Of a stretch of DNA of 64,000 bases, positions 10,221 through 51,787 are shown one piece after another; position 1 is the stretch's first letter; every line of letters starts with the position of its first letter. Origin of the DNA: Minisyncoccia bacterium (lineage in GTDB: Bacteria > Patescibacteriota > Minisyncoccia > Phycocordibacterales > PALSA-1337). Position numbers and translations under genes: made by a program. The notes below the pieces were generated by a model that worked only from the letters and a program-made list of their open reading frames with translations, was not told where the DNA came from and ran no database searches. Location of the stretch: positions 312,241 through 376,240 of the forward strand of contig JBEKVT010000001.1 of the NCBI GenBank assembly GCA_049997795.1, given 5' to 3'.

Positions 10221-10293
10221 GCGCGTATAGCTCAGTTGGTAGAGCACACCACTGATACTGGTGGGGTCCTTGGTTCGAATCCAAGTACGCGCA
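10221..10293 (+). tRNA. tRNA-Ile (anticodon GAT)
   Basis: Cloverleaf read by hand: acceptor GCGCGTA/TACGCGC, D-arm GCTC-AGTTGGTA-GAGC, anticodon stem CACCA/TGGTG with loop CTGATAC (GAT), T-arm CTTGG-TTCGAAT-CCAAG, discriminator A, CCA not encoded. Confidence 0.85.
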
Positions 10294-10329
10294 CCGTCGC
10301 CCTTATCAGCCTCGTTAACATATGATCAG

Positions 10330-11322
10330 ATGAACTCCAAAACCACTCCGAAGGATTTCTTCCTTCACCTCGGCGCCACCATAGCCCTCTATACCTCGGC
10401 TGTCGCCCTTATCAACCTGTGTTTCAGTGTCATCAATTATTACAATCCGGATGTCCTGGCCGGCTACTTCAGCTCCAACTCCATCGCTTGGCCAGTCTCC
10501 ATGCTCGTCGTCCTTGTGCCGGTCTTGTACGTCATCGAATGGTTCATCGGCCGCGACCTCGCGCGCATGCCGGAGAAGAAGGACCTCTGGATCCGCCGCT
10601 GGCGCATCTACCTCACCCTTTTCCTTGGCGGGGCGACCGTGGTCGGCGATCTGGTCGTGCTCATCAACTGGTACTTGAACGGCGAGATCACCGACCGTTT
10701 TGTCTATAAAATCCTGGTCGTGCTGGTCGTTGCCGGCGTCATCTTCGCTTATTATCTCTTGGCCCGCGCCGTTGATTCCGTCAGGGCGAAGAATTGGAGG
10801 AAGATCCTCGCCTGGTTCGGCATCGTCGTCGTTCTGGCGGGGGTCGTCGGCGGATTCCTGATCGTCGGCTCGCCGGCGAAGCAGCGCGCCATCCGTTTCG
10901 ACAGCCAGCGAGTGAGCGATCTCACGAATATCCAATGGCAGATCATCAGCTATTGGCAGCAGAGAGGGAAGCTGCCCGCGGCCCTAAGCGACCTCAACGA
11001 CCCCATCTCGAATTTCTCCGTTCCCAAGGATCCCGACACCTCTTCAAGCTACGGATATTCGACGAAATGGACCTCGGCGATGTCTTCCAATCCGGCCTTC
11101 GAACTGTGCGCCACATTCAGTCTGGCGTCACAGGATCTATCCGGCAAGGGAGCTTACGGCACGGGCGGAAGCGTGGGCGGCGCCATCCCCGTCGGCAATG
11201 TCTCATATCCCATCGGCTCCATATCGACGAACGATTCCTGGACTCATGATGCCGGCCATATCTGCTTCGAGCGCACCATCGACCCGGCCCGGTATCCGAT
11301 AAATCCAAAGATCAATCAGTAG
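10330..11322 (+). CDS. polytopic membrane protein with C-terminal type IV pilin-like domain
   Basis: About 5 predicted TM helices, then GFLIVGSPAKQRAIRFDSQRVSDLTNIQWQIISYWQQRGKLP ... YGYS ... FELCATFSLASQ. This resembles the pilin/pseudopilin globular-domain pattern, but there is no prepilin leader/cleavage motif. The track ORF starts inside the tRNA, so the start is reassigned to ATG 10330. Confidence 0.4.
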   Translation: MNSKTTPKDFFLHLGATIALYTSAVALINLCFSVINYYNPDVLAGYFSSNSIAWPVSMLVVLVPVLYVIEWFIGRDLARMPEKKDLWIRRWRIYLTLFLGGATVVGDLVVLINWYLNGEITDRFVYKILVVLVVAGVIFAYYLLARAVDSVRAKNWRKILAWFGIVVVLAGVVGGFLIVGSPAKQRAIRFDSQRVSDLTNIQWQIISYWQQRGKLPAALSDLNDPISNFSVPKDPDTSSSYGYSTKWTSAMSSNPAFELCATFSLASQDLSGKGAYGTGGSVGGAIPVGNVSYPIGSISTNDSWTHDAGHICFERTIDPARYPINPKINQ

Positions 11323-11328
11323 GGGATA

Positions 11329-11441
11329 GGCGGCAAGAGAACAAGGGTTTGAGAGACACGGGATTTTCCTGCTGGAAAATCCCTCGATGCTCGCGCCAGT
11401 CGCGCTCGCAAGGTCTCTCAAACCCTTGTTCTCTTGCCGCC
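11329..11441. repeat. structured palindromic element, copy 1: 29-bp perfect inverted repeat enclosing a 55-nt conserved core
   Basis: Arms ggcggcaagagaacaagggtttgagagac (11329-11357) and gtctctcaaacccttgttctcttgccgcc (11413-11441) are exact reverse complements. The core contains a perfect 10-bp hairpin GGGATTTTCC-TGCT-GGAAAATCCC and the segment tcgatgctcgcgccagtcgcgctcgcaag shared with copy 2. Confidence 0.8.
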
Positions 11442-11451
11442 TTCCCGTTCA

Positions 11452-11460
11452 TGCTATAAT
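11452..11460 (+). promoter_or_regulatory. extended -10 box TGCTATAAT with -35-like TTGCCG (15-nt spacer), 7 nt upstream of the radC ATG
   Basis: Motif identical to those at 12586-12594 and 25004-25012; implies leaderless radC mRNA. The -35 lies in the right arm of repeat copy 1. Confidence 0.4.
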
Positions 11461-11467
11461 CCCCGGC

Positions 11468-12205
11468 ATGCGGAAAAGCGCCTACGTCATCCCAGACACC
11501 ACGCTCATCCTCGACCGGCCCCGGCATGAATATCCGCTCATGCTCCGGGATCTGCCGCCGGCCGGAAAGCCGCGCGAGAAGCTCCTGGCCCACGGCCCGG
11601 AGGCTCTTTCCGTGCAGGAGCTCGCGGCTCTCCTCCTCATCACCGGTACGGTCTGGGAAGACGTGCTGGAGATGTCGAACCGCATCGTCCGCGATTACGG
11701 CGAGAAGAACGTCTTCGCCGAGCGCGACGCCATGAAGCTTTCCGAGGAAGCGGGCATCCCTCTCGTCAAGGCCTGCCAGATCGTGGCCGCCGGCGAACTG
11801 GGCCGCCGTTATTACGGCAAGGAGCAGTCTGGCTTCACCACCATCAGGAACGCCAAAGACGTCTATGACCATTTGACCGACATGCGGACCTTGCCCAAGG
11901 AGAATCTGCGCGGTCTGTACTTGAACGGTCACAGCCGCATCATCCGGGACGAGATCATATCGGTCGGGACGGTCAATGCCAATCTGATCCACGCCCGCGA
12001 AGTCTTCCGCACGGCCATCGAATGCAACGCCGTAGCCTTGGTCCTCGCCCACAACCATCCCTCCGGGGACTCGAGCCCCTCGACCGAAGACATCGAAGTG
12101 ACCCGCCGGCTCATCGAGGCCGGCAAGCTCCTCGGCATCCGCCTCTTAGACCACGTGATCATCACCAAAGATTCGTTCACCAGCGTGAACGCCGATTATA
12201 AATAG
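11468..12205 (+). CDS. radC: RadC-family JAB/MPN domain protein
   Basis: C-terminal JAMM motif region HNHPSGDSSPSTEDIEVTRRL. Start moved from track 11387 (which begins inside the repeat) to ATG 11468. Confidence 0.8.
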   Translation: MRKSAYVIPDTTLILDRPRHEYPLMLRDLPPAGKPREKLLAHGPEALSVQELAALLLITGTVWEDVLEMSNRIVRDYGEKNVFAERDAMKLSEEAGIPLVKACQIVAAGELGRRYYGKEQSGFTTIRNAKDVYDHLTDMRTLPKENLRGLYLNGHSRIIRDEIISVGTVNANLIHAREVFRTAIECNAVALVLAHNHPSGDSSPSTEDIEVTRRLIEAGKLLGIRLLDHVIITKDSFTSVNADYK

Positions 12206-12211
12206 CTATCC

Positions 12212-12526
12212 ATGTTCCGAGATTACACCGTTGTCTCGCCTTCCCTGGAAGGCGTCTTGAGCCATGAATCATTGATGTACGACGGCATCCGTCGGCCGGC
12301 GGAGATCCTGCGCGCCCTCGACGGCCCGGCCGCCGACCCGTCCCTCCCCAAGCCGCCGCACCAGGAGAAGATCCTGGAGCAGTATTTCTACGATCTCTAC
12401 GGAGTCTTCATGAAGAGATTGTCTTCTTTCGTCCTCGAATCGGAGCCGGCTGACCTCGAGACCGTCAAGCTCCAAGCCATGCTGCAGGAGATGATAAAGA
12501 TCAAAAAGCTGATGGGGAAGAAGTAG
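12212..12526 (+). CDS. hypothetical protein (104 aa)
   Basis: ORF 7 nt after radC, no recognisable motif; ends before an AT-rich promoter region. Confidence 0.35.
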   Translation: MFRDYTVVSPSLEGVLSHESLMYDGIRRPAEILRALDGPAADPSLPKPPHQEKILEQYFYDLYGVFMKRLSSFVLESEPADLETVKLQAMLQEMIKIKKLMGKK

Positions 12527-12564
12527 ATGGTGAAATAGGCCTAGGAATAAGGACATAAGCAGCA

Positions 12565-12594
12565 TTGACTTATGTAGTTTTGTCGTGCTATAAT
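12565..12594 (+). promoter_or_regulatory. near-consensus sigma70-type promoter: TTGACT -18- (TGC)TATAAT
   Basis: -35 TTGACT 12565-12570, extended -10 TGCTATAAT 12586-12594, in a locally AT-rich gap upstream of the 433-aa ORF. Confidence 0.6.
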
Positions 12595-12632
12595 TAAAGG
12601 TAGATCTGCACACCCTGTGCGGTCCGGGACAA

Positions 12633-13934
12633 TTGTCCCAAACTAGAACAGTCAGTAGCGAGCCTTGTGCTCGCGGAAAGGGTACGTTGAAAACTTGGAT
12701 AACTACGATAGTGACGGAATGGCTCTCACACCTGGACGAAATAACAGGCGTGCGGGAGCTGCAGCTCTTCGGGGAGAAGATCTTCCCGGGAGTCGGCACG
12801 GCGAAGATCGTGTTCAGCGACAAGGAGGTGCGGGGAGATCGCAAGGATTGCCTGTACGTCGGCGTCGGCAACGGCAAGAGCGAATTCGACGAGCATCGGC
12901 CGGACGGCCGGCTCCAGAACGAGTGCGCGGCCACTCTCGTGGCCAGACGACTCGGCATCCTCAACAAGCCGGGCCTCAAGGAGCTGCTCACCGAAGTCTT
13001 GCGGTGCGACACACAGCCCAAGACCTTCCCGACCCAGCTCGCCAACCTGGTCAAAGCCATGCATCGGGTCAAGAAAGGTACCGATCAGTATGGTACCTAT
13101 CTCTGGGTTTGTAAGGCTTTAGACGCCATCGTCTTTCGCGAGAGAAACGAAAGAATCGATCCACGCTGGCTCTGGCAGGAATTCTGCAGGGTCAGGGAAG
13201 TGCCGCAGGACGAAGCATTCGAAATCGTCAATCGACTTGTCAACGAATCATTCAGTCGACGGAATAGCCTAGTGACCGAGCTGGCGTCCATCGTCTCCAG
13301 AATGAGTGTCAAGGCCGGCTGGTTGTGGCTCGGTGAGACGTTCTCCATGTTGCTTCGGGACGCAGATATGTTCCTCGAGGCGGTCAAGGAGATGAACTCC
13401 GACAAGCTGGTCGCGTTCGATGTCCAGACTGCAGATGGTATCGAGCCGGCCTACTTCATCACGACCAACAACGAGCACGCCGGTCGAGCGGCAGTCTCCA
13501 GGCTCACGGGCAAGGCGACGATCTGCGTGGTCCGGAATACGAACGGCCACACCCAGATCTTCTCCAACCCCGACATGAAGCTCCCGATGGGGAACTTCAT
13601 CGCTCTCCTTCGGATGGCGGAGTTCAGGAAGTGGACGGGAAAGCGCCTTCCGGCCAAGAGGGCCTACGGAGCGGGGACGATCCCGGAATGCAAGCAGTGG
13701 CATCTCCCGAATCCGAACATGATCCTGAACGGGTCCTTGACCCATCCGTGGATACCGGCGTCAATACTCTCTCTCGAAGAGATCCAGGAGATCGCCCGCG
13801 TGGCCTTCACGGCGACCGGACGGGATCTGTGGATCAAGGAGTATTGCGGCGAGAAGCCCTTAGAAGCCATCTCGTCGGAAGACTCACTCGGCATCCTCGA
13901 GACTGCGATGGACCGCGCCAACGGTCGGAAATAG
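12633..13934 (+). CDS. hypothetical protein (~410-433 aa), own promoter and terminator
   Basis: Long ORF with no recognisable domain. Track start is TTG at 12633; a GTG at ~12711 is an alternative. Flanked by a consensus promoter and a double-hairpin terminator. Confidence 0.5.
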   Translation: MSQTRTVSSEPCARGKGTLKTWITTIVTEWLSHLDEITGVRELQLFGEKIFPGVGTAKIVFSDKEVRGDRKDCLYVGVGNGKSEFDEHRPDGRLQNECAATLVARRLGILNKPGLKELLTEVLRCDTQPKTFPTQLANLVKAMHRVKKGTDQYGTYLWVCKALDAIVFRERNERIDPRWLWQEFCRVREVPQDEAFEIVNRLVNESFSRRNSLVTELASIVSRMSVKAGWLWLGETFSMLLRDADMFLEAVKEMNSDKLVAFDVQTADGIEPAYFITTNNEHAGRAAVSRLTGKATICVVRNTNGHTQIFSNPDMKLPMGNFIALLRMAEFRKWTGKRLPAKRAYGAGTIPECKQWHLPNPNMILNGSLTHPWIPASILSLEEIQEIARVAFTATGRDLWIKEYCGEKPLEAISSEDSLGILETAMDRANGRK

Positions 13935-13944
13935 TCAGCGAACT

Positions 13945-14008
13945 TGCCACAAGCGCAGAGCGCTTGGCAAGCAAAGAGGGCAGGAAGCTTAGCTCCGCCC
14001 TCTTTTTT
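13945..14008 (+). terminator. tandem hairpins ending in T-tract (rho-independent terminator)
   Basis: Two hairpins, gccacaagcgc-agag-gcgcttggc and GAGGGC-aggaagcttagctcc-GCCCTC, the second followed by TTTTTT at 14003-14008. Confidence 0.65.
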
Positions 14009-14050
14009 ATACCCCGAACCTTTCAATACTGGTTTGAATGCCTTATAATT

Positions 14051-15379
14051 ATGCCCATGAGCGCCCGTGACTTCTTCCTGGGCAAAAGGATCGCCGTCAT
14101 CGGTTTGGGGGTGAACGGAGAGATGGCGGCGGACGTCAGATTCTTGGTCAAAGCCAATGCTCTGGTCTCGGTTTACGATCTCAAGGCCGAGGCGAAGGTG
14201 AGCGGCCACGCGGCCTCGCTGCGCTCTCTCGGCCTGGCCAATTTCCTGTGCGGCTCGGTGCCGGCCGACGATCTCCTCGACATGGATCTTATCATCCTGT
14301 CGCATGAATATCCCCGCAATTCGTCTTTCTTGTCGGAGGCTCGCAAGAAAGGCGTCGAGATAGAATATCCGGAGACCCTGTTCCTCCGGCTCGCCCCGCC
14401 TATAACCGTCGTCGGCATCATGGGCGCCTGCGGCAAGGCCACCGTCCTGTCCATGCTCTCTCCCATGATGGAAGCGGCCTGCGCGGAGAAAAAAGCCAAG
14501 GAGAAGTGCTTCACCGCCGACCCGGAGTCGGACAGCGGCATCCTCGCCCATCTCGGTCGGATGAAAAACGGCGACATCCTCGTCTTGCGCATCGCCGAAC
14601 AGATGATGCCGGAAATAACCGCCCTCGACTGGAGCCCGCACATCGCCGTCTTCGCCACCATGCCATCTTTGCCGTCGTCCCTGGAGTCGCCCTTCGGGAT
14701 CCTCGTCCATCAGACCTACAACAATCATGTGATCGGAAGCGACAAGGTCATCGATGCCGTCCGGGCCTCCGGCCTTCCCTTGAAAGGGAAGATGCTGCGC
14801 ACCAAAGCATCGCTCGTGCCCGAAGACTGGCTTCGGAACGGTCGCGCGCCGTATGATCAGGATAACGCCGCCCTGGCCCTCCAAGCGGCCAAGCTCTTCG
14901 GCGTTTCCAATGAGACGGCCAAAGCGGTCCTGTCGAAATGGAAGCCGCTCAAGGGCCGGCTCGAGCCGGTCAAGAAGCTGAAGAGCGTCGAATTCTGGAA
15001 TGACACGGCCTCCGTCTCGCCCGAGGCCACGGTCGCAGGCATGGAAGCCTTGGCCGGAGACAAGAATCTGGTGCTCATCATGGGCGGGTCCGACCGAGGC
15101 GCCGATTATCATGACTTATACGCGGCGGCGTCGCGATACGCCCATGCCCTGGTCGTTTTGCCGGGAAGCGGGACCTTGAAGGAAAGGCAGGCCATCCGCG
15201 GGCTCGACGGCCTGACCGTCCTTTCGGTGCCGTCCGTCGAAGAAGCGGTGCGTTCGGCCATGGATCAGGCCCATAAGGGAGATAAGGTGCTGTTCAGCCC
15301 CGGTTTCGGCGCCGGCGGCATATACGGCTCGCGCGCCGAACGCGGCGACCATTTTATACGGGCAGTCAGAGCCTTGTGA
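14051..15379 (+). CDS. murD: UDP-N-acetylmuramoylalanine--D-glutamate ligase
   Basis: N-terminal FFLGKRIAVIGLGVNG Rossmann segment, Mur-ligase central domain (GIMGACGKAT), C-terminal FSPGFGAGGIY...RG..F. Start re-set to ATG 14051, after the terminator and a TTTCAA-17-TATAAT promoter-like sequence. Confidence 0.65.
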   Translation: MPMSARDFFLGKRIAVIGLGVNGEMAADVRFLVKANALVSVYDLKAEAKVSGHAASLRSLGLANFLCGSVPADDLLDMDLIILSHEYPRNSSFLSEARKKGVEIEYPETLFLRLAPPITVVGIMGACGKATVLSMLSPMMEAACAEKKAKEKCFTADPESDSGILAHLGRMKNGDILVLRIAEQMMPEITALDWSPHIAVFATMPSLPSSLESPFGILVHQTYNNHVIGSDKVIDAVRASGLPLKGKMLRTKASLVPEDWLRNGRAPYDQDNAALALQAAKLFGVSNETAKAVLSKWKPLKGRLEPVKKLKSVEFWNDTASVSPEATVAGMEALAGDKNLVLIMGGSDRGADYHDLYAAASRYAHALVVLPGSGTLKERQAIRGLDGLTVLSVPSVEEAVRSAMDQAHKGDKVLFSPGFGAGGIYGSRAERGDHFIRAVRAL

Positions 15380-15393
15380 TCACGCTTTGATTA

Positions 15394-15510
15394 TAGGTAG
15401 CGAGAGAAGGAGATATTGAAAGACACGGAATTTCCCTGCTGGGAAATTCCTCGGTGCTCGCGCCAGTCGCGCTCGCAAGGTCTTTCAATGTCTCCTTCTC
15501 TCGCTACCTA
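15394..15510. repeat. structured palindromic element, copy 2: 31-bp inverted repeat (1 G-T mismatch) enclosing the same 55-nt core
   Basis: Arms taggtagcgagagaaggagatattgaaagac / gtctttcaatgtctccttctctcgctaccta. Core hairpin GGAATTTCCC-TGCT-GGGAAATTCC carries compensatory changes relative to copy 1; tcggtgctcgcgccagtcgcgctcgcaag is near-identical. Lies between convergent murD and the PLP-enzyme gene. Confidence 0.8.
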
Positions 15511-16401
15511 TCATTCGCCGCAGATCATACAAACAACGGCGCCGGGGAATTTCCAGCCGATGGATGTTGCTTTCATGACTCCTGCTACAGAGAGAGCGCT
15601 ATTCGCGGAGATCTCAAGGCCCGCATGCTTTTCGGTCAATTCCTGCGCAGCTCTGATATCGTCGTTCGTCGCCACCCAGCCGCGGCCGCCGGTCTTCTCG
15701 ATGAGAGGGATGAGGACGTCTTTCCTGTGAGCCGTTTTGTCCACGATCGCGTCGGCGGTCGACGTCTCATCCGGGCCGTCGTATGATTCGAAGCTCTCGG
15801 ATAGGGGATGACAGGATGATGTCTGCACGATATGGACCTGGATCGACAGTTTCTTTTTTGTAAAATAAGCGGCCAAGGCCTGGGCCGTCGTGCCTGAAGA
15901 GGTGCCGATCATGACCGCGCCGGCGCCTTTTATCTCTCCGAGCTCCGCGGCCAATGGTTCATAGCCGATCAAGGCGACATCATCAGTCGATTGTCGGAGG
16001 CTTCTCGCGCCTTCTTTTACGGCTTCATTCAGAGCCTGGAGCGGCCGCTCCTTTACCATAACGCGGATGTGGTCATCCGCCAGCTCTTTCAACCGGATCG
16101 CCTTGTGCGGTGAAGCATGCTGTCCGATGAAGATGTCCAAGCCGATGGGTTTTTCTTTGCCGCCGGCTCCTTCCCGCCGGTCGTTCGATTCACGGACAAA
16201 AAGCGCCGCTGCCAGAGCCGCGTTCCCGGACGAAGAGATGGCGAACCGGCTGTCGCCGCCTTTCAAATAGTGCTTGATCATGATCGGAATGGAACGGCCC
16301 TTGTGCGAGCCGTAGGGATGCAGGTCTTCGCGCTTGAAATAGATGCCCGGGACGCCGATCGCCCCGGCGAGCTTCGGGTATCGTTCGAGAGGAGTCGACA
16401 T
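15511..16401 (-). CDS. PLP-dependent enzyme, fold-type II (cysteine synthase/threonine dehydratase-like superfamily)
   Basis: 296 aa; GSHKGRS lysine motif near the N-terminus, glycine-rich GTSSGTTAQALAAYF PLP-phosphate loop. Confidence 0.5.
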   Translation of the reverse strand: MSTPLERYPKLAGAIGVPGIYFKREDLHPYGSHKGRSIPIMIKHYLKGGDSRFAISSSGNAALAAALFVRESNDRREGAGGKEKPIGLDIFIGQHASPHKAIRLKELADDHIRVMVKERPLQALNEAVKEGARSLRQSTDDVALIGYEPLAAELGEIKGAGAVMIGTSSGTTAQALAAYFTKKKLSIQVHIVQTSSCHPLSESFESYDGPDETSTADAIVDKTAHRKDVLIPLIEKTGGRGWVATNDDIRAAQELTEKHAGLEISANSALSVAGVMKATSIGWKFPGAVVCMICGE

Positions 16402-50000: not shown

Positions 50001-51787
50001 TCAAGGCGTTCATCAGAAAGACGACCGATGCTCTGCGGTTGCTCGACCGCGCCTTCAGGCAATACAGGAAGAAGATCGCCGTCCTGGCTTTTCTGGGCTT
50101 CTTGTCCGGCCTGTTCGAAGCGGTCGGCGTCAACGCTCTGGTGCCTCTTTTTTCGTTCTTGACCGGCAGCAATGACTTCGGCGACGACCTCGTCTCGAAG
50201 GCCATCAAGAGCCTGTTTGCCATCGTCCACGTCACGTTCTCGATAAAATATCTGCTTGTCTTCATCTGCATCCTATTCATTCTGAAGGCCCTGGCGCTCA
50301 TGTGGGCGAGCTACGTGAAGATCCAGATCATCGGCAACTATTCGAAATCCGCCCGCACCGCGCTCTTCCGGAAGACTTTGGCGGCCAGCTGGCCGTATCT
50401 CTTGAAGCAGAAGCTGGGCCACCTGGAGACGGTCATCTTGACCAACGTGCAATACGGCGAGCTCATGCTCGACCACCTGAGCAGCATCATCACCATCATG
50501 AGCATGCTCTTCATCTATACCGCCGTCGCCGTCGACATGTCGCCCATAACTAGCATCCTGGCCGTCGCTCTCGGTGCCGTCCTGTTCTTCATCTTCAAGC
50601 CGCTCATCACCCGGACCCGGCTGGCCTCGAACGATATCGAGGCCATCAACCGCCAGACTTCCCACCACGTCAACGAGAACGTCATGGGCATGAAGACCGT
50701 CAAGGCCATGGGCGTCTATCAGGCGGTCGTGGCCCGGGGCGAATCGTTCTTCGAGAGCCTGCGCCGGCTCAAGGTCAGGATCACTGTCCTCAAGATGGTC
50801 CCGGAGAACCTGATGCCGTCGATAGGCATAGTCTTCGTCATGATCGTCCTGGCCATTTCCTACAAGCTGCCGCATTTCAACCTGGCGGTCCTGGCGGCGG
50901 TGGTCTACCTGATCCAGCAGATCTTCCTCTATATACAGCAATTGCAGAGGCATGTGCAGATGGTCTATGAATGCGCGCCATACGTCAGGGCCATCACGGA
51001 ATTCGACGACGGAGCGGAGAGAGAGCTCGAACGCGACCGAGGCACGGCGGATTTCTCTCTCCGGTCGGAGTTCAAATTCTCAGACGTCTCGTTCGCTTAT
51101 GAGAATCGCAAGTCCGTCCTTGAGCACGTCGATTTCAGGATACGGCAGGGCGAGGTCGTGGGCCTCATAGGCCCGTCCGGCGCCGGCAAGACCACCATCG
51201 TCGACATATTGCTCCGCCTCTTCGATCCGTCGAAGGGCACCATCTCAGTCGACGGAGTCGACATCGCCTCCATCAAGCTCAGCGCCTGGCGCGAACACGT
51301 AGGTTATGTCTCGCAAGACGTCTTCCTGATGAACGACACGGTCGAGAATAATATACGTTTCTACAACCAGTCGTTATCGAAACAAGACCTGGTCAAGGCG
51401 GCCAAGATGGCCAACATATACGACGTCATCGAAAATCTGCCGCAAGGCTTCGACACGGTGATCGGCGAGCGCGGCGTCCTCTTGTCAGCCGGGCAACGCC
51501 AGCGCATCATCATCGCCCGCGTCCTGGCCAGGAAGCCGGAGCTCCTCATCCTTGACGAGGCCACCAGCGCTCTCGATAACCAGTCCGAGATGGAGATCCA
51601 GAAGGTCATCGACGGCCTCAAGGGCAAGCTGACCGTGTTCGTCATCGCTCACCGGTTGTCGACCGTGGTCAATGCCGACCAGCTCCTTGTCCTCGAAAAG
51701 GGCAGGATAGTCGAGCGCGGCAAGCCGCAGGACCTTCTGGCCGATAAGAGCTCCTATTTCCACAGGTTATATAATCTCAAGCAATAA
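49994..51787 (+). CDS. ABC transporter, fused permease/ATP-binding exporter (MsbA/type I exporter-like)
   Basis: 6-TM N-domain; Walker A GPSGAGKTT, signature LSAGQRQRIIIARVL, Walker B ILDEATSALD. Confidence 0.85.
   Translation: MVIKAFIRKTTDALRLLDRAFRQYRKKIAVLAFLGFLSGLFEAVGVNALVPLFSFLTGSNDFGDDLVSKAIKSLFAIVHVTFSIKYLLVFICILFILKALALMWASYVKIQIIGNYSKSARTALFRKTLAASWPYLLKQKLGHLETVILTNVQYGELMLDHLSSIITIMSMLFIYTAVAVDMSPITSILAVALGAVLFFIFKPLITRTRLASNDIEAINRQTSHHVNENVMGMKTVKAMGVYQAVVARGESFFESLRRLKVRITVLKMVPENLMPSIGIVFVMIVLAISYKLPHFNLAVLAAVVYLIQQIFLYIQQLQRHVQMVYECAPYVRAITEFDDGAERELERDRGTADFSLRSEFKFSDVSFAYENRKSVLEHVDFRIRQGEVVGLIGPSGAGKTTIVDILLRLFDPSKGTISVDGVDIASIKLSAWREHVGYVSQDVFLMNDTVENNIRFYNQSLSKQDLVKAAKMANIYDVIENLPQGFDTVIGERGVLLSAGQRQRIIIARVLARKPELLILDEATSALDNQSEMEIQKVIDGLKGKLTVFVIAHRLSTVVNADQLLVLEKGRIVERGKPQDLLADKSSYFHRLYNLKQ

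Follow-up and report, generated by a model that had tools for sequence, protein, structure and literature searches.

We analysed a 64,000-nucleotide stretch of DNA from a Minisyncoccia bacterium (assembly GCA_049997795.1, contig JBEKVT010000001.1, positions 312,241 to 376,240), referred to here as the window, which carries two copies of a palindromic element. In each copy a long basal stem, P1, encloses a core of about 55 nt with two hairpins, P2 and P3, and the three helices form a three-way junction on one strand. Across the family to which the copies belong, P1 (20–35 bp) keeps its pairing and is free in sequence, and the core is almost invariant. According to our reading, to which we assign a probability of roughly 0.6, both copies belong to a Patescibacteria-wide family of insertion elements, small and non-autonomous, which are selfish in nature and copied in trans by way of a folded single strand.

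Two copies of one structured element

The arms of copy 1 are fully complementary over 30 bp (100%) and those of copy 2 over 32 bp with one T·G, and in both cases they enclose 55 nt. Imperfect pairing of copy 2 reaches 15390/15514, corresponding to 35 nt at 94%. The two cores are 91% identical, differing at 5 of 55 positions; four of these differences are accounted for by two base pairs of the 10-bp hairpin that changed in a compensated way (G-C to A-T, T-A to C-G), and the fifth lies in a junction. The sequence common to the arms of copy 1 and copy 2 is limited to the innermost AGAC/GTCT. An earlier note on this stretch, made from the letters alone, had described an almost identical 55-nt core between self-complementary arms of unrelated sequence, with compensated changes that leave the stems of the 10-bp hairpin intact, and had named radC, two orphan genes and murD as the genes bracketed by the copies. 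Our results agree with this description, and the positions given there for both copies were right within a few bases as judged by arm complementarity.

A 28-nt string from the core occurred twice in the window and not once in 100 shuffles. Folding, a check that the earlier note had proposed, gave the three-way junction of P1, P2 and P3 for both copies, with z-scores of -11 to -13. Moreover, a covariance model run on the 64 kb returned exactly two matches, of 89 and 86 bits, the next best reaching 13 bits. On the basis of the shuffles, the folding z-scores and the covariance-model scores, a chance origin is excluded.

A family across Patescibacteria

To find relatives of the two copies (individual loci are designated below by L numbers), an exact 20-mer from P3 was searched against 185,579 GTDB species genomes. 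It matched 70 loci, about 66 of which carry the full element, that is, the core flanked by complementary arms. Three of the 70 (L044, L045 and L070) are chance matches in other phyla, and L068 is a marginal, divergent match at best. The labelled hosts are almost all Patescibacteria, comprising Saccharibacteria, Paceibacterota/Parcubacteria, Taylor-, Nomura-, Giovannoni- and Berkelbacteria; the sole exception among the taxon-labelled hosts is L017, labelled Gammaproteobacteria. The number of copies per genome ranges from 1 to at least 8, with arms that differ between copies, and the length of the element from about 105 to 127 nt. A scan of metagenomes, anchored on P2 and hence blind to P3, gave more than 120 loci among the matches listed. 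Further copies, which the earlier note had suggested looking for, are accordingly abundant in both collections. The window organism itself, which is Paceibacterota-like, is repeatedly present in peat metagenomes; the core variant of its lineage had no match in the metagenome collection.

With regard to phage carriage, searches of IMG/VR with two different core patterns gave no match to the element. The scan of the window against Rfam, likewise proposed earlier and covering self-cleaving ribozymes and retron msr/msd among its families, produced a tRNA elsewhere as the sole match at the gathering threshold and none on the element, and at E-values up to 10 there were only generic long-hairpin microRNA and VA matches far below the cut-offs. 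Five translations of the element had no match in NCBIfam or Pfam at E-values up to 10, and full-text literature searches found no description of it. Within the literature and the Rfam, Pfam and NCBIfam collections searched, the element is apparently undescribed.

Covariation and the folding strand

P3 is characterised across the family by tandem G·A pairs and by a loop that reads GACUG or GACG, and P2 by an AGYA loop and usually one bulged A. The P2 of copy 1 is without this bulge, which is a trait of the window lineage. In the alignment of 60 genome copies, 95% of the cells were paired compared to 76% in shuffles, and double changes occurred at 19 of 28 pairs, with both-sided changes at all 11 modelled P1 pairs and at 8 of the 10 P2 pairs. 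Covariation of P3 is not readable in this set, as P3 was fixed by the search anchor. The 117 metagenome copies obtained with the P2 anchor showed double changes at 26 of the 28 pairs, the second hairpin included. In that set the upper 4 bp of P3 vary as GCGC, GGCU/AGCC, GCUC/GAGC, GUGC/GCAC and others, with the loop (GACUG or GACG) and the tandem G·A step unchanged. The covariation that the earlier note wished to see in a larger alignment is thus present in all three helices. That note had already concluded that selection acts on the structure; its basis, two compensated pairs in two copies, was thin, and it is the two large alignments that support the conclusion.

The earlier note had written the structure on the plus strand. 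However, the reverse complement of that orientation gives the more stable fold, on average by 6–7 kcal/mol, in 54 of 61 copies from genomes and in 102 of 111 from metagenomes. Arm mismatches on the strand first written were A·C in 35 cases and G·T in 12, and an A·C on one strand is a G·U on the other. Since the G·U pairs fall on it, the folding strand in the window is the minus strand, and it is this strand that folding energy, too, identifies as the selected one. On the folding strand, purines predominate in the internal loops. The hairpin tips of some copies contain insertions of variable length, with the G·A motif kept. Nested extra hairpins at the tip of P2 or P3, or between the two, were seen in L017 (3012-3112), L026 (101-203), L032 (1261-1362), L052 (2745-2862), L002 (7659-7749) and L164 (1468-1660), and in one of them the AGCA loop of P2 recurs. 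The folding strand lies on the strand of negative GC skew and is more often antisense to the local genes (102 of 168 copies, against 66); this bias is modest.

Presence and absence at orthologous sites

The stop codons of murD and of a pyridoxal-phosphate-dependent (PALP) enzyme converge, and copy 2 (125 nt) occupies the space between them. Among relatives with usable DNA, L081 is the closest, with 86% identity between its PALP protein and that of the window. Its PALP/murD junction consists of TAA, 6 nt and the murD stop codon, whereas 131 nt separate the two stop codons in the window. The insertion supplies the last two bases of the PALP stop codon, which is TGA in the window where the empty site has TAA. 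The element is likewise missing at this junction in relatives with about 70% protein identity. In one of them (L084, 4096-5019) a gene for an IS1595-family transposase lies between PALP and murD, at the junction that copy 2 occupies in the window.

A second comparison is provided by two Tgt proteins that carry the element at different sites and therefore act as empty sites for each other. In the alignment the site of L002 appears as a clean gap of 38 residues (114 nt), and because the gap spans the full 38 residues, both arms are foreign to tgt. We rejected the possibility that the arms are an inverted duplication of the target in view of this gap, of the copy 2 arms, which are unlike the flanks of the empty site, and of the lack of local paralogues other than a sibling copy. 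Insertion of a core into an existing hairpin was ruled out for copy 2, the empty site having only 6 nt between the stop codons. Target-site duplications, another check proposed earlier, were not seen: there are no direct repeats beside the best-preserved copies, and the sole comparison of an empty with a filled site (L081, about 12% diverged) revealed no simple duplication.

At the position of copy 1, the nearest radC relatives have a pyruvate kinase gene between DUF5671 and radC. L087, a relative with a radC of 75% identity, has at 2861-2985 a palindrome that differs in its core (P2-like GCGCGCCC-TGCT-GGGCGCGC) and reaches only 31 bits against the model. It is located just upstream of the -10 box of radC, as copy 1 is in the window.

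Copies in frame inside genes

Most copies are intergenic, often lying exactly between stop codons. Among the 138 copies with enough flanking sequence, however, 24 (17%) lie inside long open reading frames (ORFs), and the frame is open in each of them. The ORF is on the folding strand in 14 cases and on the opposite strand in 10, and the hairpins are as stable in intragenic copies as in intergenic ones. The host genes are tsaD, iscS, mnmA, tgt, infB, dnaE, recG, uvrD/pcrA, pheT, dus and a transketolase-like gene. The core consensus has no stop codons in five of its six reading frames. From the in-frame, stop-free position in permissive loops, an intragenic element is predicted to be translated as an extra peptide of about 38 residues; an example across the insert, in Tgt, DnaE or RecG, would read ...TDISLLGNSSCSRQSRSQ....

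Recurrent use of the same loop was found in two proteins. In tsaD the element is present in three species in the same loop, and in iscS (L097 and L114) it lies in the same loop just before the HTDAxQ motif, in opposite orientations in the two species. The iscS pair could have arisen by separate insertions into a loop that tolerates them, or the core may have been flipped when the arms recombined with each other. For the three tsaD genes, the core is 93–100% identical compared to 60–71% for tsaD and 39–47% for third codon positions; among the arms, one pair shows 82% identity and the remaining two pairs are close to random.

An intron or intervening sequence was considered and rejected, as the intragenic copies are always in frame and none of the five tested pairs of same-strand ORFs with the element between them proved to be a split gene; these pairs are unrelated genes rather than halves of one. 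An intrinsic terminator was rejected as well, since neither arm in the window is followed by a T run and copies also lie within essential ORFs. Remnants with in-frame internal deletions are kept in the host genes of L200 (tgt) and L066 (1636-1700, mnmA). The deletion in L066 is flanked by short AAAAT direct repeats, and one Tgt combines an intact copy with a remnant at a different site.

Inheritance and diversity of the arms

The mnmA of L066 contains a full copy and, at another site, a remnant with a 69-nt internal deletion. The two have 47 nt in common and differ within these at two loop bases. L164 carries two copies with the same 30-nt arm. These sibling copies share their arms, and the element is thus copied together with them. 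At the orthologous mnmA site of L001 and L042, the arms differ at 26% of positions and still pair. The family also displays a decay series that runs from perfect stems of 26–35 bp to eroded arms, together with the remnants that have internal deletions.

Subfamilies of arms exist, one of them with 15 members across several genomes (L009 4520-4665, L010 7680-7825, L035 3095-3240 and about 12 more loci), in which only the outermost 8–13 bp vary, and covary. The conserved region of this subfamily is longer; from the outside in, it consists of the variable stem, a 6x6 purine loop (GUUGAA/GAGAAA), a 10-bp stem, a GA/GA step, a 6-bp stem and the junction. It occurs in several copies per genome, mostly antisense to both flanking genes. 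Taking all arms together, positions outside the inner 5 nt carry no more than 0.6 bit of information, and for most arms no paralogue was found nearby or in 1.4 Mb of related DNA.

One arm of copy 1 (window 11333-11355) has an exact 23-nt match to a 1113-residue phage ORF in IMG/VR, at L208 (4866-4888) and L209 (7718-7740), two contigs of the same phage. The estimated chance expectation is 0.004–0.04. Four other arms had no viral match, a pooled BLAST search of 90 arms against cultured phages gave none, and the 23-nt match is probably due to chance.

Other long inverted repeats were noticed in L037 (2328-2411), L050 (855-942), L016 (4475-4634), L031 (2257-2368), L006 (6609-6731) and L062 (373-469). 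They are often perfect, and their arms, unrelated in sequence, surround different conserved cores; CCCACCC...GGGAAGGGT, for example, is common to L037 and L050. Several families that combine free arms with a structured apex thus seem to exist in Patescibacteria genomes.

Interpretation and alternatives

The whole unit, including its arms, is inserted into new sites, and we propose that the element is selfish. A trans-acting enzyme would recognise the folded core on single-stranded nucleic acid, either single-stranded DNA extruded from the palindrome or an RNA copy, and would require paired ends of no particular sequence. Of the three identities put forward in the earlier note, a mobile palindrome is the best supported, in view of the empty site in L081, the clean 38-codon insertion in tgt, the copies that lie in frame within essential genes and the arms shared by sibling copies. 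The labels it attached, MITE (for miniature inverted-repeat transposable element) and PATE (for palindrome-associated transposable element), do not fit as family membership because the ends are variable, the centre is conserved, and neither a target-site duplication nor a partner transposase was found. Its other two candidates, a structured RNA and a cruciform, may describe the form in which the element is recognised. A protein partner linked in cis was rejected, as no family recurs among the neighbours within 4 kb of 67 copies.

Several observations weigh against this interpretation. No mobilising enzyme was identified, and among the genes within 4 kb of 67 copies no family, transposases included, was over-represented. 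Neither a target-site duplication nor a target motif was seen, with one clean empty site compared, and the difference from L081 has no outgroup polarity, so that it may represent either insertion or precise loss. Most arms within one genome are unrelated, and singletons make up 53 of the 70 arms. Unless the family is old, is diverse or has been exchanged horizontally, such a pattern is difficult to square with plain copying of the element together with its arms. The tandem G·A pairs, and the 6x6 purine loop in one subfamily, are conserved non-canonical motifs that resemble those of a functional RNA. In addition, the conservation of the core in tsaD needs constraint, gene conversion or repeated insertion and does not suit neutral junk: it reflects either strong nucleotide-level constraint or gene conversion, or else repeated independent hits on permissive loops.

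A more tentative extension is that these elements form a new class of mobile element, in which only the central three-way junction of about 55 nt is recognised, on one strand, and any paired sequence can serve as the ends. That the mechanism of mobilisation is itself new is correspondingly doubtful, albeit well worth considering. If this were true, the chemistry of transposition or retro-insertion would be unlike that of terminal-inverted-repeat transposons, HUH elements and integron cassettes, the core could be a new ribozyme or priming module, and its extreme conservation across lineages would reflect a conserved partner enzyme.

Alternatively, the copies might be a host-functional family of structured RNAs (small RNA, protein-sponge RNA or new ribozyme), with the stem as a handle for processing or stability and the genic copies incidental. 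We consider this unlikely. The covariation in all three helices, the strand-specific use of G·U, the conserved tandem G·A pairs and loops, the modular expansions of the hairpin tips and the further conserved internal loops of one subfamily are all what a functional RNA would be expected to show, and so is a core far more conserved than the tsaD that hosts it. However, essential genes harbour about 17% of the copies, in frame and in either orientation; no gene neighbourhood is conserved, and close relatives lack the element at the same locus. There is also no conserved promoter or terminator at the ends, where the flanks hold at most 0.6 bit, and the variable number of copies per genome (1 to at least 8) and the excess of folding strands antisense to local genes and on the strand of negative GC skew (102 vs 66) point in the same direction.

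A host DNA site, that is, a cruciform or single-stranded hairpin bound by a replication, priming, nucleoid or recombination protein, whose spread is a by-product, is in our view improbable. It would account for an orientation that is independent of the direction of transcription and weakly tied to GC skew, and for hairpins that are as well preserved in genic as in intergenic copies; by established nucleic-acid chemistry, DNA hairpins tolerate G·T and tandem G·A pairs too. Against this, the skew bias is modest (61:39) and confounded with gene strand, the copies are irregularly spaced (the two are separated by 4 kb, and the 64 kb contain no third), the element can be dispensed with at orthologous sites, and no link to any known binding motif was seen. 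Both a functional RNA and a DNA-binding site are hard to reconcile with in-frame residence in either orientation together with presence or absence at orthologous sites.

It is highly improbable that the arms were captured from foreign DNA and that the element works as a hairpin-guide module, in which a stem of about 25–30 bp would serve as the "spacer" attached to a conserved handle. The exact 23-nt match between the copy 1 arm and the phage ORF would be in line with it, as would arms that are not derived from the target and have no paralogue nearby. However, the four other arms without viral match, the 90 arms without match in cultured phages, the inherited subfamilies into which arms fall and the lack of an associated effector gene speak against it, and in-frame residence in essential genes would make no sense for a guide locus. 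Finally, a local duplication or chance palindrome without wider meaning, which the presence of only two copies in this window might suggest, is already refuted by the hundreds of copies across Patescibacteria genomes and metagenomes.

Comparison with known systems

The Rickettsia palindromic elements (RPEs) come closest in behaviour. According to PMC10969869, which summarises Ogata et al. (2000, 2002), they are palindromic, about 100–150 bp long, reside in a reduced bacterial genome and have no transposase of their own; they are intergenic and, unusually often, in frame within unrelated housekeeping genes, whose translation then includes them as an additional peptide. The present element is functionally RPE-like in that it also occurs in frame in unrelated housekeeping genes (24 of 138 copies). 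In contrast, RPEs are conserved along their whole length, whereas the element is conserved only in its central 55 nt and its arms are free. It has no sequence relation to RPEs (its translations lack matches in NCBIfam and Pfam), its host phylum is Patescibacteria, and it has a covarying three-way junction and a defined folding strand.

Like the MITEs Correia, ERIC, RUP and Nezha, the element is small, multicopy and non-autonomous; long hairpins and possible in-frame fusions are further common traits. MITEs, however, have conserved terminal inverted repeats, a cognate transposase and target-site duplications, whereas the ends of the element are variable, no duplication was seen, and no cognate insertion sequence was found near its copies (within 4 kb of 67 copies). 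The repetitive extragenic palindromes (REP/REPIN-RAYT) and the PATEs of IS200/IS605 are hairpin repeats thought to act as strand-specific single-stranded DNA. They resemble the element in lacking terminal inverted repeats and target duplications and in having a bulged base in the recognition hairpin, and the strand specificity of PATEs is found in the element as well. In the REP/REPIN-RAYT system, REP sequences of 20–40 nt are conserved, occur as inverted pairs and flank a RAYT gene. The ends of REP and IS200/IS605 elements are conserved, though, with hairpins close to them, whereas the two hairpins of the element are central, about 30 nt from free, variable ends, and no Y1/HUH transposase gene was seen beside any copy.

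The attC sites of integrons are likewise recognised by structure as a folded single strand, with strand choice, and have variable stems and lengths of 57–141 nt. Their conserved R''/R' boxes lie at the base of the stem and their apex is variable, which is the reverse of the layout of the element, and they bound gene cassettes beside an integrase, whereas the contexts of the element are ordinary housekeeping genes. Membership of the MITE, REP/REPIN, attC and RPE families was rejected: the element lacks the conserved ends, or in the case of RPEs the sequence relation, that define them. With free, paired ends around a centre that is structured and conserved, it is laid out the opposite way round from these families.

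The coding palindromes of Nematomorpha mitochondria are long and near-perfect inverted repeats kept inside translated genes (PMC6649704). They resemble the element in that pairing and coding are preserved together. In their case, however, both arms encode native conserved protein, there is no shared core, and the palindromes are not insertions of a repeated element.

Gene context and other features of the window

The features of the two copies are listed in Table 1. The genes are arranged in the order DUF5671, copy 1, radC, two orphan genes, murD, copy 2 and the convergent PALP enzyme. Copy 1 is flanked by the stop codon of DUF5671 (11322) and the start of radC (11468), with the extended -10 box of radC (TGCTATAAT) about 10 nt downstream of it. 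The two orphan genes (window 12212-12526 and 12633-13934) had no match in Pfam, NCBIfam or PADLOC, and there is therefore no sign of a composite transposon. In relatives, a different gene, with an NYN domain, takes the place of the second orphan gene between radC and murD.

Table 1. Coordinates of the two copies of the element and of their parts within the window.
Feature	Position	Strand	Remarks
Copy 1, whole palindromic element	11328..11442	minus	115 nt; covariance-model match of 89 bits on the minus strand
Copy 1, P1 5' arm (folding strand)	11413..11442	minus	Free sequence, purine-rich; 30/30 complementary to 11328-11357
Copy 1, hairpin P3	11388..11410	minus	UGC-GA-GCGC-GACUG-GCGC-GA-GCA; tandem G·A pairs and 5-nt loop; from the fold
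Copy 1, hairpin P2	11360..11383	minus	10 bp, loop AGCA; from the fold
Copy 1, P1 3' arm	11328..11357	minus	From arm complementarity
Copy 2 as insertion	15388..15512	minus	125 nt; from alignment with L081; covariance-model match of 85.9 bits
Copy 2, P1 5' arm (folding strand)	15480..15511	minus	From arm complementarity
Copy 2, hairpin P3	15455..15477	minus	Same sequence as P3 of copy 1
Copy 2, hairpin P2	15427..15450	minus	Two base pairs swapped relative to copy 1, both compensated
Copy 2, P1 3' arm	15393..15424	minus	One mismatch, which reads T·G on the plus and A·C on the minus strand

Two strain contigs (L075 and L076) are 99.97–100% identical to the window, from which they differ by only a handful of single-nucleotide polymorphisms (SNPs). 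Two of these fall within copy 2, one in the P2-P3 junction and one that breaks an arm pair. The SNPs between such near-identical strains are too few to inform on the evolution of the arms.

Upstream of copy 1, a tRNA gene (window 10221-10293) overlaps the start of the longest DUF5671 ORF (10261-11322). The gene calls on the source contig give DUF5671 a shorter product of 330 residues, and its true start therefore lies downstream of the tRNA. The window also contains an imperfect inverted repeat at 50999-51079, with 26-nt arms that are 77% complementary and a 29-nt spacer, which is unrelated to the element.

Significance

Patescibacteria possibly account for a large share of bacterial diversity, and their tiny genomes are usually called poor in mobile DNA. 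A single 55-nt motif nevertheless recurs almost unchanged across many of their lineages. The roughly 38 extra residues that it is predicted to add to enzymes of translation, replication and repair would affect gene calling, protein alignments and phylogenomic markers throughout the group, and unexplained "insertions" in Patescibacteria proteins can be this element. The family would also represent a second, independent case of the phenomenon found in Rickettsia, that is, selfish DNA inside the protein-coding genes of reduced genomes. As its inverted layout fits no transposon family tested, the partner enzyme could reveal a new, structure-directed mechanism of insertion.

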